Shown here piece by piece: positions 8,580 to 47,903 of a DNA stretch of 49,576 nucleotides. The stretch lies in the sequence record NC_016158.1. One strand, given 5' to 3'. The stretch's first letter is position 1, and every line of letters starts with the position of its first letter. The DNA is from Escherichia phage HK639. The notes below the pieces were generated by a model. The model was not told the origin of the DNA. It saw nothing but the letters and a program-made list of their open reading frames with translations, and ran no database searches. The position numbers and the translations under genes were made by a program.

Positions 8580-9018
8580 TCAGTCAATGCGTATCGCTGG
8601 CCTGCTGGAAGGTCGCGTCGCGGTTATCTGCTCCTCGCTCGGGCTGCCGCTGGCCTGGCCGAACATCGCGTTTACTCCACCGGATAATGCGCCGTACGGG
8701 CGTGTTTACGTTCTTCCGGCGCAAACCGTGGGGCAGGATCTGGAAGGTCAGTTGCGTACATATCAGGGGATCTTGCAGGTAAACATCATTACTCCCGCAG
8801 GCTCAGGCGTGAGCCAGGCGAGAGGGCTGGCCCAGTCGGTGGCAGATGCATTCCCTGAAGGACTGCCGCTGGTGGACGGTGATCTGACGGTTTACATCAA
8901 CGGGCCGCCGCAGGTGAGACAACCCATCCAGGACCGGCCAACCTCGGCGCCCAACGGGTCCAGTGGCTCCATAACCTACACCATTCCCGTCAGCATGCAG
9001 TACCGCGCTGACTACTGA
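8569..9018 (+). CDS. tail terminator-like protein (putative)
   Basis: 149 aa immediately upstream of major tail protein gene. Confidence 0.45.
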   Translation: MAGDQSMRIAGLLEGRVAVICSSLGLPLAWPNIAFTPPDNAPYGRVYVLPAQTVGQDLEGQLRTYQGILQVNIITPAGSGVSQARGLAQSVADAFPEGLPLVDGDLTVYINGPPQVRQPIQDRPTSAPNGSSGSITYTIPVSMQYRADY

Positions 9019-9064
9019 CCCGCCAGATGGCGGGTTTTTTATTAGCTAAATTCAGGAGAGTGCT

Positions 9065-9997
9065 ATGGCATTCGCAATCCCTAACGGCTCGCGTGTGAAC
9101 GTGGCCAAGGCCTATCAAGCCCCAATCACCTTTACCGCAGCCTCTAACGCGACGGAATGCGAACTGACCGTTGCATCGGCCTCCGGCATTCTGGCCGGTG
9201 ACGTAGTTCAGGTGAGTTCCGGCTGGTTAAAGCTCGATAACATGGTGCTGCGCGTAAAATCGGTGACCAGTAATAAAATCGTGCTGGAAGCACTCGATAC
9301 TACCGACACCACCAAATTCCCGGCAGGCACTGGCGCGGGAACGCTGCGCAAAATCGACTCATGGATCACCATGCCTCAGGTGATGACACTATCAACTGAA
9401 GGTGGTGACCAGCAGACCATCAGTGTGCAGTTCCTCGAAGATGACAAAGCGCGAACTATCCCAACGTTTAAAAACGCGGTGGTTCAGGTTTACACCTTTG
9501 CGCATGACCCTCAACTGGCGATCTACAAACGCCTCATTGACCTGGATGACTCCAGCGATACAACGGCGGTCTGGTTCCATAACCCACGCGGCAAAGCCGA
9601 TCGTTTCTACTCAGCCAAAGTATCGTTCCAGCGCGTACCGCGCACGGAAATCAACGCCGTGGAAAGTAACGAAGCGCGTATGAACTTCGAATCGGACATG
9701 CAGATTTACCCGATCGCCGATTCATCCGTGACGCCGCTGGCGTTCCTGACCGACCTGCCGGCCACCAAATCGGTTGCCACAGGCGCAGCGCTGGATCTGG
9801 CGGTGGTAATGAAGGGCGGCTCAGCACCTTACACCTACGTATGGAAGAAAGGCAGCACCGCTATTCCGGGCAAAACCGCATCGACGTTCAACATTTCGTC
9901 TGTCGCATCCGGTGATGCTGGCGTTTACACCTGTGAAGTCACCGACGCCGCGGGAAAAACCATCACCTCGGCTGCGTGTACTGTCACGGTCAGCTAA
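9065..9997 (+). CDS. major tail (tube) protein with C-terminal Ig-like domain
   Basis: 310 aa; RBS AGGAGA; C-terminal ~90 aa Ig-like segment (YTYVWKKGSTAIPGKTASTFNISSVASGDAGVYTCEVTDAAG); followed by terminator. Confidence 0.75.
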   Translation: MAFAIPNGSRVNVAKAYQAPITFTAASNATECELTVASASGILAGDVVQVSSGWLKLDNMVLRVKSVTSNKIVLEALDTTDTTKFPAGTGAGTLRKIDSWITMPQVMTLSTEGGDQQTISVQFLEDDKARTIPTFKNAVVQVYTFAHDPQLAIYKRLIDLDDSSDTTAVWFHNPRGKADRFYSAKVSFQRVPRTEINAVESNEARMNFESDMQIYPIADSSVTPLAFLTDLPATKSVATGAALDLAVVMKGGSAPYTYVWKKGSTAIPGKTASTFNISSVASGDAGVYTCEVTDAAGKTITSAACTVTVS

Positions 9998-10003
9998 CCA
10001 CTC

Positions 10004-10027
10004 GGGCCCGGTACGCCGGGCTTTTTT
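10004..10027 (+). terminator. rho-independent terminator after major tail gene
   Basis: CCCGG-TACG-CCGGG hairpin plus TTTTTT. Confidence 0.6.
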
Positions 10028-10140
10028 ATGCGCATCGCACGCGCACATCGAAGAAAGTCTTTCAGCTGTGAGCCTGGGCAAACCGTTAACTTTCGGCGGA
10101 TTTGCCGTGCGACAGGCTCACGTCTAAAAGGAAATGAGAA
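10015..10140 (+). promoter_or_regulatory. conserved leader element, copy A (duplicated at 47237..47378)
   Basis: About 130 nt alignable to the region upstream of the Rha gene: shared GGGCTTTTTTATGCGCATC-CACGCGCA, CTTTCAG, GAGCCTG...CAGGCTCAC inverted repeat and TCTAAAAGG immediately before ATGAAT. Confidence 0.6.
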
Positions 10141-33693: not shown

Positions 33694-33763
33694 TGGTGGA
33701 GTGCTCCGGATTCGAACCGAAGTTTTCATGGGTGATCAGTCCATGCAGGCCCAGCCACACCCC
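33694..33763 (-). other. tRNA-like element (T-arm, acceptor 3' strand, CCA) of non-canonical structure
   Basis: Minus strand reads GGGGTGT...TTCGG-TTCGAAT-CCGGA-GCACTCC-A-CCA; 5' GGGGTGT can pair with 3' GCACTCC via two G-U pairs; only 35 nt between, so no canonical D/anticodon arms. Confidence 0.3.
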
Positions 33764-44362: not shown

Positions 44363-44437
44363 GGGTCAGAAGCACAGCGGTTGTGCGTTCGGCTGTTAAC
44401 CGAATGGTCGAAGGTTCGAATCCTTCCTGTCCCGCCA
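44363..44437 (+). tRNA. tRNA-Asn (anticodon GUU), phage-encoded, one U-U mismatch in acceptor stem
   Basis: Manual fold: acceptor GGGTCAG/CTGTCCC, D-stem GCAC/GTGC, anticodon stem TTCGG/CCGAA with loop CTGTTAA, T-arm GAAGG-TTCGAAT-CCTTC, discriminator G, CCA. Confidence 0.6.
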
Positions 44438-44776: not shown

Positions 44777-44806
44777 TTGACTGCAGGAATAAGTTCGGCG
44801 TAATTT
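44777..44806 (+). promoter_or_regulatory. candidate late promoter (pR'-like): TTGACT-18 bp-TAATTT
   Basis: -35 TTGACT and -10 TAATTT resemble recalled lambda pR' hexamers; about 170 nt upstream of a strong terminator. Confidence 0.35.
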
Positions 44807-44952
44807 ATTTCTGTGGTGAATCCTTTCTAAGCGAAAGGGCGTTCCAGCCAACTGCTATCTGCAGGTATGCGCGCGACTTTGCTGGCTGGAGTAGAGTCAC
44901 CGGGAGGCACCCGGCACCATGACAACAACAATACAGTTTCAAATTCCTTGAG

Positions 44953-44981
44953 AGCCTGCCGTAAAAAGCAGGCCTTTTTTT
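44953..44981 (+). terminator. rho-independent terminator (tR'-like candidate)
   Basis: GCCTGC-CGTAAAAA-GCAGGC plus TTTTTTT. Confidence 0.6.
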
Positions 44982-45136
44982 ATGAAATTGCGAACTGCTG
45001 CTACGCTTGAAAAGTGGGTTGAAGATAACTGCCTGATGGTTCTCCTGAACCATAGTGAATCAGCCTGATACTGTCTCACTCTGGTCAGTTAGCAAAACTC
45101 ACGACTACCTACCTTACTTACTAATAGTCACTCATT

Positions 45137-46786: not shown

Positions 46787-46928
46787 TACGGGCTGCCTGT
46801 GGACCCGGATTATCTATCTGACAAACCACGATATCGACGTTATGGACCGCCAGACGAAGAAAGACATCCTGGCGCATAACAAAGCGTGGCAGGCGAACTG
46901 TCAGAAACCAACAGAGAAAAAAATATGA
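46701..46928 (+). CDS. o-spanin (Rz1-like lipoprotein), overlapping i-spanin
   Basis: 75 aa; lipobox LIASC; starts inside Rz-like gene in +1 frame. Confidence 0.6.
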   Translation: MYSKLLTICLAMMLIASCAKTSPAPVVIDTGCLWTRIIYLTNHDIDVMDRQTKKDILAHNKAWQANCQKPTEKKI

Positions 46929-47206
46929 GCGAAGCTAAACCGCAGGACGGCACTACCGTTAAAGGCTATCGAACCTTATCGCCTGGTGATATTGAGCGTA
47001 TGAATCGCCTGAAGGGTGTCAGCCGACACTTCTGTAATTTACATGATACAGAACGTGAGCATGTCAACGATGAGTTATCTGCTACCGGCAACCACTCAGC
47101 TGAAGCAAACGAAGCTGCCCGCTGTCTCGCTATTGCGCGCACCAAAATGCAGGAAGCCTGCATGTGGGCATGTCGTGCCGTAGCCCGTCCAGACGCTGAC
47201 TGTTAG
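46925..47206 (+). CDS. hypothetical protein following lysis cassette
   Basis: ORF 46886..47206; ATG 46925 overlaps o-spanin stop (ATGA); 93 aa. Confidence 0.45.
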   Translation: MSEAKPQDGTTVKGYRTLSPGDIERMNRLKGVSRHFCNLHDTEREHVNDELSATGNHSAEANEAARCLAIARTKMQEACMWACRAVARPDADC

Positions 47207-47223
47207 CCAAAAAACAAACATAG

Positions 47224-47249
47224 AGCCTCGCAATAGCGGGGCTTTTTTA
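47224..47249 (+). terminator. rho-independent terminator
   Basis: GCCTCGC-AATA-GCGGGGC plus TTTTTT. Confidence 0.6.
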
Positions 47250-47378
47250 TGCGCATCTCACGCGCATCTCAACGAGAGCCTTTCAGTAAGCGAGCCTGAG
47301 AAATGCCGTTATAGGTGGCGACCTCTCTCGGGCGGCTTTTCTGTGAGACAGGCTCACTTTCTAAAAGGTAAAGACGCT
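47237..47378 (+). promoter_or_regulatory. conserved leader element, copy B (paralogue of 10015..10140)
   Basis: Alignable to copy A; contains direct repeat GCGCATCTCA x2 and inverted repeat GAGCCTG...CAGGCTCAC; ends TTCTAAAAGG before ATGAAT. Confidence 0.6.
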
Positions 47379-47903
47379 ATGAATAATCCGTCAGTTATTC
47401 CGGCCTTTGACTTCCGAGAAATGGTGCAAGCCAAAAACGGAGAGGTCGTTACCACATCCCGAAAAGTTGCCACGTACTTCGGAAAGCGACATGGTGATGT
47501 GCTCAGGAAAATCGAGCAGGTTAAGGCCGATTGCTCAAGTGAGTTTAGCCAACGCAATTTTGCGTCGGCCGATTATATCGATGAGCAGGGTAAGGTTCGC
47601 CCGATGTATAGCCTGACGAAAGATGGCTGGATCATGGTTGTGATGGGGTTCACCGGGAAAGCTGCTGCGGCTATCAAAGAAAGCTACATTTCAGCTTTCA
47701 ATTGGATGTCTGAGCAACTTAGCCGTCGCCTGGCCATGGGTGAAGAAATGCAGCACCGCTACGCCATCAAAGAAACGCGCTCAAAGTTGAAGGGCACGAT
47801 CGGCAGCCGGTTGATGAACGAGCGGAAGAAAGAGAAACGTGTTCTGGCTGTGGAGCATGAGCACATCATGCAGGTAACGCAGCCTGAATTGCTGATCGAA
47901 TAA
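47379..47903 (+). CDS. rha: Rha-family phage regulatory protein
   Basis: ORF 47343..47903 with start at Met13; N-terminal VVTTSRKVATYFGKRHGDVLRKIEQ signature of Rha domain. Confidence 0.7.
   Translation: MNNPSVIPAFDFREMVQAKNGEVVTTSRKVATYFGKRHGDVLRKIEQVKADCSSEFSQRNFASADYIDEQGKVRPMYSLTKDGWIMVVMGFTGKAAAAIKESYISAFNWMSEQLSRRLAMGEEMQHRYAIKETRSKLKGTIGSRLMNERKKEKRVLAVEHEHIMQVTQPELLIE

Follow-up and report, generated by a model that had tools for sequence, protein, structure and literature searches.

What does it mean that two unrelated genes of one phage are preceded by nearly the same non-coding DNA? The question is raised by Escherichia phage HK639 (NC_016158.1; the 49,576 nt analysed are called the window below), where one such stretch, copy A, lies in front of a gene of the tail block coding for a PHROG 29765 protein, and another, copy B, in front of a gene coding for a Phage_pRha protein. 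An earlier note, made from the letters alone, had taken the two for homologous copies of a portable expression unit, which would be either a promoter with regulator-binding repeats or a cis-acting attenuator or riboregulator. The answer that we favour, and regard as fairly likely, is that A and B belong to one family of structured 5' leader RNAs, a portable cis-acting leader for translational control that is also a recombination hotspot.

The homology of the two stretches was borne out by pairwise alignment, with a mean identity of 74% across 250 nt. It is not confined to the terminator hairpin: identity is high throughout the element and ends at the upstream gene on one side and just past the Shine-Dalgarno sequence on the other. 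Reading of the sequence placed both 5' ends, as the note had it, inside the 3' arm and T-run of an intrinsic terminator (for copy A, homology with other copies begins in that arm at about 10012 by BLAST). Arm and T-run are common to A and B and are followed by ATGCGCATC(G/T)CACGCGCA; positions 10018-10045 of copy A read GGGCTTTTTTATGCGCATCGCACGCGCA, and positions 47239-47266 of copy B are identical but for one G-to-T change. The long-range inverted repeat was also found again, as GTGAGCCTG...CAGGCTCAC in A and GAGCCTG...CAGGCTC in B, and both copies share the 3' end TCTAAAAGG, located 9-10 nt before an ATGAAT that contains the start codon (10141 and 47379). A covariance model trained on copies from other phages detected two copies only in the 49.6-kb window, A at 10019-10142 (143.1 bits, E = 2e-37) and B at 47240-47379 (109.1 bits, E = 5e-28); the next-best match, at 15 bits, was the reverse strand of copy A. 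The element is a plus-strand RNA of about 125-140 nt.

Folding of each copy gave, in order, the intrinsic terminator, a hairpin (P1) and a long interrupted hairpin made of helices P2 to P5, so that nearly all nucleotides between terminator and start codon are paired. The alignments used for these nested helices were fitted to the covariance model. Among 108 distinct viral sequences, 90.8% of the cells were standard-paired, against 40-46% when the partners were slid by 1-3 columns; in an independent set of 51 distinct sequences from bacterial genomes the values were 92.1% against about 40%. Pairs altered on both sides numbered 36 of 45 in the viral set and 30 of 39 in the bacterial-genome set, and in neither did any of 500 shuffles reach the observed value. 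RNAalifold, to which the structure was not supplied, recovered P1-P5, with 19 of its 25 predicted pairs compensated. The P1 stem was paired at 98% (one variant, L235, has GUAC/GUAC instead), and changes on both sides affected 9 of 10 pairs in P3 and 9 of 11 in P4/P5. Compensatory changes support every helix, and the fold as predicted is shown by this covariation. Strongly conserved unpaired nucleotides are few across the family.

Two further pairings, absent from the earlier note, connect the loops of this nested structure. Pseudoknot 1 (PK1) forms between the P1 loop and a bulge of 6 nt on the 3' side, between P4 and P3: UCGCAC/GUGCGA in A and UCUCAC/GUGAGA in B. Though it was not modelled in the alignment, this pairing was found at 98.3% in the 108 viral sequences and 96.2% in the bacterial-genome set, with compensatory changes in all six of its pairs. 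The family holds at least 11 complementary PK1 variants, besides versions with G-U pairs; they include UCGUAC/GUACGA, UCGCGC/GCGCGA, UCGCAU/AUGCGA, CGCCCG/CGGGCG, CGCUC/GAGCG, UUCCCC/GGGGAA, CCACC/GGUGG, UCACAC/GUGUGA and CCCAC/GUGGG. In pseudoknot 2 (PK2), the purine-rich linker located directly 5' of the anti-Shine-Dalgarno strand pairs with the 3' part of the apical loop, as GAAAG/CUUUC in A and CGAGAG/CUCUCG in B. This pairing has at least 10 variants, among them CCCGAG/CUCGGG, CUCAGAA/UUCUGAG, CCAAGAA/UUCUUGG, CGAUAA/UUAUCG, CCGCAGA/UCUGCGG, UCCCUAAG/CUUAGGGA, CCACAGAG/CUCUGUGG and CCUGCAGAG/UUCUGCAGG. The mean PK2 duplex was 5.7 bp with the element's own loop and 3.9 bp with shuffled loops. 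Counted by column, PK2 was paired at 78% and 67.5% in two column blocks, values blurred by a shift of register, and a cross-type control discriminated only weakly, purine or pyrimidine runs being common to many types. Since the nested structure leaves all four pseudoknot strands in loops or bulges, both pairings can coexist with it and do not compete with it. P4, P5 and PK2 together amount to about 16-17 bp and P3 with P2 to about 17 bp, lengths which, in a model of the fold, would fit two side-by-side stacks joined at the P3/P4/PK1 junction.

A P1-less form of the leader is seen in Stx2a phages (L219:2480-2650, LC616031.1), before a Rha-like gene; five of the six bases complementary to the bulge are retained in it, and the region follows an insertion of an insertion sequence-type transposase adjoining Rz.

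Is the functional molecule really the plus-strand RNA? Single-sequence folds were more stable for the minus strand (z -5.2 and -4.8) than for the plus strand (z -2.9 and -2.1), as might be expected from an antisense small RNA lying over the cargo ribosome-binding site. The family as a whole points the other way: on the plus strand there are 333 G-U cells and 86 A-C cells, about 4 to 1 (an A-C is a G-U on the other strand), the minus strand scored only 15 and 9.5 bits with the covariance model, no promoter or U-tailed terminator was found for a minus-strand RNA, and the cargo gene is invariably downstream, on the same strand as the leader. A minus-strand RNA is therefore a very improbable explanation. 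The promoter with regulator-binding repeats proposed in the earlier note fared no better. A consensus scan detected no sigma-70-like promoter in 10000-10140 or 47220-47380, although atypical promoters could escape it, and conserved symmetric half-sites, which an operator would display, are not seen: the arms change sequence and keep their pairing, and in some copies the pseudoknot partners are wholly rewritten (CGCCCG/CGGGCG and UUCCCC/GGGGAA are examples). Because the arms vary yet remain complementary, with G-U pairs on the plus strand only, they are those of an RNA helix and not of a protein-binding palindrome. Inverted repeats could in principle bind dimeric proteins, and hybrid or truncated copies (see below) show recombination within the element, so that one might still think of a recombination linker devoid of any RNA role; but such a linker would keep its sequence rather than its pairing, and two pseudoknots make no sense in duplex DNA. 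The covariation largely refutes a DNA-level role, be it as promoter with operator repeats or as linker, and we give it very little credence.

The outermost helix, P2, indicates what the RNA may do. In it, (U/C)CUUUCAG pairs with CUAAAAGG, which holds the Shine-Dalgarno sequence, AAAGG in both A and B; this pairing too had escaped the earlier note. P2 is paired at 98.4% family-wide, changes in the Shine-Dalgarno sequence are compensated on the other strand (CCUAUAGG/CUUAUAGG in L050, CCUUA/UAAGG in L233, CUUUGA/UCAAAG in L031), and the start codon follows the Shine-Dalgarno strand by 7-12 nt. The homology between copies ends a few nucleotides past that strand. The element itself thus brings the ribosome-binding site of its cargo and hides it in a helix. 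Since that site lies inside a leader helix, the leader probably controls the amount of cargo protein made. As to the second proposal of the earlier note, the riboregulator stands, as a conserved RNA structure holding the cargo Shine-Dalgarno sequence; the transcriptional attenuator does not, since the terminator is upstream of the structured part, which consequently cannot decide whether that terminator fires.

Could a leader peptide be involved instead? The ATG in UUUUUUAUGCGC, at the start of P1, opens in copy A a 39-codon open reading frame that crosses the whole leader (10028-10144, plus strand) and whose TGA overlaps the cargo ATG (ATGA), an arrangement suited to translational coupling. 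But 47 of 164 distinct elements are without the ATG; in the others, the frame ends after 7-40 codons or enters the cargo in varying frames, and in copy B it stops after 16 codons. There is no Shine-Dalgarno sequence ahead of it, and substitutions track base pairing, not codons. With neither frame nor stop conserved, control by a leader peptide is refuted, and we attach next to no probability to it. The parts of both copies, with their cargo genes, are listed in Table 1.

Table 1. Anatomy of the two leader copies of phage HK639 and of their cargo genes (window coordinates, all on the plus strand; SD, Shine-Dalgarno)
Feature	Copy	Position	Strand	Sequence or remark
Intrinsic terminator after major tail gene	A	10004-10027	+	GGGCCCGG-TACG-CCGGGCTT and T-run; terminator scan
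Hairpin P1	A	10029-10045	+	UGCGC/GCGCA, 7-nt loop AUCGCAC
PK1 5' strand	A	10035-10040	+	UCGCAC, in P1 loop
PK2 5' strand	A	10053-10057	+	GAAAG, linker directly 5' of anti-SD strand; pairs with CUUUC 10090-10094
P2 5' strand	A	10058-10065	+	UCUUUCAG, anti-SD strand
P3 5' strand	A	10067-10076	+	
P4	A	10077-10082 with 10101-10106	+	
P5	A	10083-10087 with 10095-10099	+	
Apical loop	A	10088-10094	+	holds PK2 3' strand CUUUC (10090-10094)
Bulge, PK1 3' strand	A	10107-10112	+	GUGCGA, 6 nt, complementary to P1 loop UCGCAC
P3 3' strand	A	10113-10122	+	
P2 3' strand	A	10124-10131	+	CUAAAAGG; contains SD AAAGG 10127-10131; start codon 10141
Cargo A	A	10141-10821	+	226-aa accessory gene, PHROG 29765, Phage_Tail_Tip-like segment
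Terminator 3' of cargo A	A	10848-10875 (hairpin 10848-10865)	+	AACCCGC-TACG-GCGGGTT and T-run; terminator scan
Intrinsic terminator after Acb2/Tad1-like gene	B	47224-47248	+	AGCCUCGC-AAUA-GCGGGGCU and T-run; sequence read
Hairpin P1	B	47250-47266	+	loop AUCUCAC
PK1 5' strand	B	47256-47261	+	UCUCAC
PK2 5' strand	B	47273-47278	+	CGAGAG
P2 5' strand	B	47279-47286	+	CCUUUCAG
P3 5' strand	B	47289-47298	+	
P4	B	47299-47303 with 47338-47342	+	
P5	B	47305-47310 with 47331-47336	+	
PK2 3' strand	B	47325-47330	+	CUCUCG
Bulge, PK1 3' strand	B	47343-47348	+	GUGAGA
P3 3' strand	B	47349-47358	+	
P2 3' strand	B	47361-47368	+	CUAAAAGG; SD AAAGG 47364-47368; start codon 47379
Cargo B	B	47379-47903	+	Rha-family regulator gene; PF09669, E 5e-28; PHROG 518

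The apical loop of copy B is enlarged and holds an additional mini-hairpin, AGGU-GGCG-ACCU. The counterpart of the copy B terminator is annotated 'terminator' in phi80, HK106 and epsilon34. Cargo B follows the lysis cassette, as in phi80 and HK620, and a search for relatives of its Rha protein returned only ones that were at least 93% identical. The gene directly upstream of copy B (46886-47206, plus strand) codes for an Acb2/Tad1 hairpin-domain protein (PF24729, E = 3e-17); located between the lysis genes and the Rha cassette, its product is a candidate sponge for immune signalling nucleotides. Cargo A is flanked by the major tail gene (9065-9997) and the gene for the tail chaperone (10887-11225). 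Its product falls in the largest cargo cluster, 58 members with a common C-terminus, and its residues 77-128 resemble the lambda J-like tail tip (PF09327); a receptor-related or exclusion role would be a guess.

In which transcript would the leader be found? Family-wide, 133 of 150 distinct contexts have a terminator-like hairpin with a T-run immediately before the leader, and a few copies come straight after a stop codon, without terminator. The element is without exception found in late operons. The usual upstream genes, those for the Rz/Rz1 spanins and for the major tail protein with its Ig domain, both belong to the late operon, and in HK620 and phi80 the late operon with the element lies downstream of pR'-qut. 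The tail block of HK639 contains three strong intrinsic terminators on the plus strand (9017-9036, 10004-10023 and 10848-10865): two flank the major tail gene and the third, which follows the inserted gene, closes the cassette before the chaperone gene. With three terminators inside the block, late transcription must rely on antitermination throughout. This organization recalls the moron, a single accessory gene inserted between late genes of lambdoid phages (the Hendrix/Juhala concept), which has a sigma-70 promoter of its own before it and a terminator after it. Cargo A is indeed a single extra gene, terminator-bounded and inserted between the major tail and chaperone genes, which are adjacent in related phages, and many unrelated accessory genes of late regions have a leader of this family in front. 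The difference lies upstream, where the consensus scan found no promoter at A or B and where the conserved unit is a terminator plus an RNA leader supplying the ribosome-binding site. Downstream, a terminator follows cargo A immediately and none was detected right after the Rha gene.

How widespread is the leader? Among deposited phages, BLAST matched 31 records with copy A as the query and 165 with copy B, and two exact-pattern scans of viral contigs each gave at least 120 matches. Phi80 carries two copies, one before rha and one before PHI80_66; the HK620 copy sits between Rz and the KilA-like hkbK; and the element is also present in HK106, epsilon34, Sf101, CUS-3, P22-like Salmonella phages and Stx2a phages. 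With each bacterial species represented by a single genome, a scan checked by the covariance model yielded about 45 true loci, located in prophages that span about 18 Enterobacterales genera (Enterobacter, Leclercia, Kosakonia, Citrobacter, Kluyvera, Buttiauxella, Atlantibacter, Pseudocitrobacter, Pseudescherichia, Siccibacter, Shimwellia, Mangrovibacter, Superficieibacter, Pantoea, Serratia, Rahnella, Brenneria and Escherichia). Of 5,426 complete E. coli genomes, 111 contain the A-type, and it is annotated in none of them. An A-type copy is also on record for the cloning strains DH10B (NC_010473.1 1370228-1370339), DH5alpha, TOP10 and XL10-Gold, where it presumably belongs to the phi80dlacZ remnant.

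Pattern matches outside Enterobacterales in the genome scan proved to be due to chance when checked with the covariance model. The sole match of the model itself outside that order in a named isolate genome, L269:6120-6264 of Pseudomonas brassicacearum (31 bits), is a REP-like (repetitive extragenic palindromic) repeat, GAGCCTGCTCGCGA...TCGCGAGCAGGCTCAC, and not a family member; it provides a useful false-positive case for family-model building.

The portable unit that the earlier note guessed from two genes holds on a much larger scale, for about 31 unrelated protein clusters share this leader. They comprise the large family with a tail-tip-like C-terminus, Rha, KilA-N, HNH_3 endonucleases, T5orf172/GIY-YIG-like proteins, TerB-like proteins, membrane proteins and small open reading frames. 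Tandem cassettes, in which a leader and a small gene are followed by a second leader and a second gene, were found at L005:11787-12409, L096:1955-2586 and L074:5004-6083. Other elements are hybrid or truncated (L096:2447, L142, L161, L126, L160 and L016), which shows that recombination occurs inside the leader; the hybrid L096:2447-2586 has the 5' half of one leader type and the 3' half of another, and records an exchange inside helix P3. As the same 125 nt or so stand before so many unrelated genes, the leader would act as a portable unit and a recombination site as well.

These elements can be assembled into a scheme. Without a promoter of its own, the leader would be made within the phage late transcript, when Q-modified polymerase reads through the upstream terminator. 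It would fold independently of its neighbours and keep cargo translation low or conditional. Ribosome access would depend on the pseudoknotted tertiary fold stacked next to the weak P2, so that a protein, a small ligand, Mg2+ or a processing event that loosens or tightens the fold could tune expression. Finally, besides being a portable unit of expression, the leader would offer a place for homologous recombination, by which cargo genes are shuffled between phages.

Several points weigh against this scheme. We infer both the membership of the late mRNA and the effect on translation from position and anatomy. P2 is weak: with nested nearest-neighbour energies, the Shine-Dalgarno sequence opens at a cost of only 1.9 kcal/mol for copy A and 4.5 kcal/mol for copy B; P2 being marginal and PK2 abutting it, P2 probably relies on the tertiary fold to close. 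The most divergent relatives (L031:11857, L019:5364, L277:7925) have their Shine-Dalgarno sequence immediately 3' of P2 and not within it, hence sequestration may not be the conserved core function. The sequences share descent and recombination, so that independent compensatory events are fewer than the counts of cells given above. The register of PK2 shifts by one position between types, and a custom register-free script was used to score it. A simple hairpin would suffice to damp translation; the double pseudoknot suggests a more specific role involving a ligand, a protein or catalysis. Against a classical small-molecule pocket, in turn, argues the scarcity of conserved unpaired nucleotides.

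Does a bound molecule decide whether P2 closes? In pseudoknotted translational riboswitches such as SAM-II and preQ1-II/III, the Shine-Dalgarno sequence is in a marginal helix stacked on a pseudoknot. The leader has a similar architecture: a complex aptamer-like fold backed by covariation (five helices and two pseudoknots), peripheral stems of variable length, and an expression platform coupled to the fold, since the Shine-Dalgarno sequence provides the 3' strand of P2 and adjoins PK2. It differs from them in its few conserved unpaired nucleotides, which leave little to form a pocket, in the absence of any common metabolic theme among its cargo genes and of any Rfam match. For one cargo gene, rha, regulation by IHF has been reported, as summarised in PMC4936722, so that a trans-acting input is documented for at least one cargo. 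In the window no candidate partner RNA was found: a search for a trans-acting mimic or partner found no further copy of either P2/P3 strand. A riboswitch or a protein-operated switch, giving condition-dependent translation, is on balance an unlikely candidate. An IHF site within the leader was also considered, by eye only, and rejected: the conserved AUCAA resembles an IHF core, but the downstream TTR is absent.

A catalytic role may also be envisaged, that of a putative new self-cleaving ribozyme, or processing element, which would cut the late transcript into gene-length mRNAs and leave the folded RNA at the 5' end of the cargo. To our knowledge, the order of strands (P1, PK2 5' strand, 5' strands of P2-P5, PK2 3' strand, PK1 3' strand, 3' strands of P3 and P2) is unlike the twister, pistol, hatchet and HDV-like folds. 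The compact double-pseudoknot fold is in keeping with such a role, and P1 starts 1-2 nt after the U-tract, where a cut would leave a structured 5' end. A parallel exists with hammerhead ribozymes, which occur in several copies per prophage, each beside a single gene of varying identity (PMC3088659). The leader, too, is a structured RNA found in several copies per phage, each flanking a single variable gene of an operon, but it lacks the hammerhead core and matches no ribozyme model of Rfam 15 (hammerhead, twister, pistol, hatchet, HDV-like) at E values up to 10. It has no obvious invariant catalytic core, its conserved unpaired nucleotides being few, and the pairing of the Shine-Dalgarno sequence is explicable without catalysis. 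We judge self-cleavage to be quite improbable. A more sweeping proposal, which would see in the leader a ligand-sensing riboswitch or a self-cleaving ribozyme of a new class, acting as a universal portable gate or processor of accessory genes, is entertained as a tentative and rather doubtful one; the genes so gated may be those of anti-repressor-like regulators, nucleases, and exclusion or defence-related proteins.

The fold might, more modestly, be a structural shield or insulator, which guards the cargo mRNA from RNases entering from upstream, denies access to Rho and ensures context-independent expression without any switching. The near-complete pairing from terminator to start codon and the many insertion contexts with unrelated flanks speak in its favour. 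Q-modified polymerase is, however, already Rho-resistant, and a shield leaves unexplained why the Shine-Dalgarno sequence is in a helix and why two sequence-specific pseudoknots are kept. Its chances are accordingly poor. The translational control leader would work like other leaders that sequester a Shine-Dalgarno sequence, and it has simpler counterparts in other phages. In T4, hairpins upstream of the free-standing homing endonuclease genes mobE and I-TevI sequester the ribosome-binding site; they are simple, gene-specific and relieved by late transcripts that start inside them. Here also a cis-acting RNA would mask the Shine-Dalgarno sequence of accessory genes that may do harm, HNH_3 and T5orf172/GIY-YIG-like proteins being among the cargo, but a single double-pseudoknotted family of about 125 nt serves about 31 cargo clusters. 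Other cis-acting structured RNAs of lambdoid transcripts are the HK022 put RNAs, two plain stem-loops downstream of early promoters that act on RNA polymerase, and the RNase III hairpin of the lambda N leader, a single long hairpin that buries a Shine-Dalgarno sequence as well; neither is known to have pseudoknots or a multi-cargo distribution.

Has the element been described before? None of the 4227 models of Rfam 15 matched it at gathering threshold, and in the whole window only tRNA and STnc100 passed. Around each copy, at E values up to 10, Rfam gave weak terminator-type or chance matches of at most 21 bits, against thresholds of 37-380. No RefSeq record annotates the element, and a search of the open-access literature by topic and by literal sequence strings did not find a description of it. 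Judged against Rfam 15, RefSeq annotation and the searchable open-access literature, it is a previously undescribed cis-regulatory leader RNA. None of the prophage small RNAs already known (AgvB, AsxR, the Pas RNAs and STnc100) overlaps A or B; all map elsewhere. STnc100/PasD, AgvB and AsxR (RF02076, RF02702, RF02703) are likewise non-coding RNAs of lambdoid prophages, but they differ from the leader in locus, sequence and structure, and they work in trans, through base pairing.

The STnc100-family small RNA of the window (44780-44985, plus strand) scored 52.6 bits for a gathering score of 47. It is downstream of a Q-like gene and several terminators, where the pR' leader transcript would lie, with a tRNA-Asn gene (44363-44437) just upstream; a 2026 preprint connects STnc100 with the PasD prophage small RNAs. 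A tRNA-Ile (anticodon gat) was called by ARAGORN at 33694-33763 on the minus strand and not by the Rfam tRNA model at gathering threshold; the call may be spurious or reflect a degenerate tRNA.

To conclude, well-studied lambdoid and P22-like phages, and laboratory strains such as DH10B and DH5alpha, carry an RNA that is missing from RNA family databases and genome annotation. Our view of moron expression would shift accordingly, with many morons riding the late transcript behind a standard leader that both carries and masks their ribosome-binding site. The leader would offer a testable handle on the way in which phages restrain potentially toxic cargo such as nucleases, Rha and KilA-N, and a conserved recombination site would be a physical explanation for the shuffling of that cargo. 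It would also be a natural context-independent expression module, and it stands as a strong candidate for a new class of riboswitch, protein operator or ribozyme.

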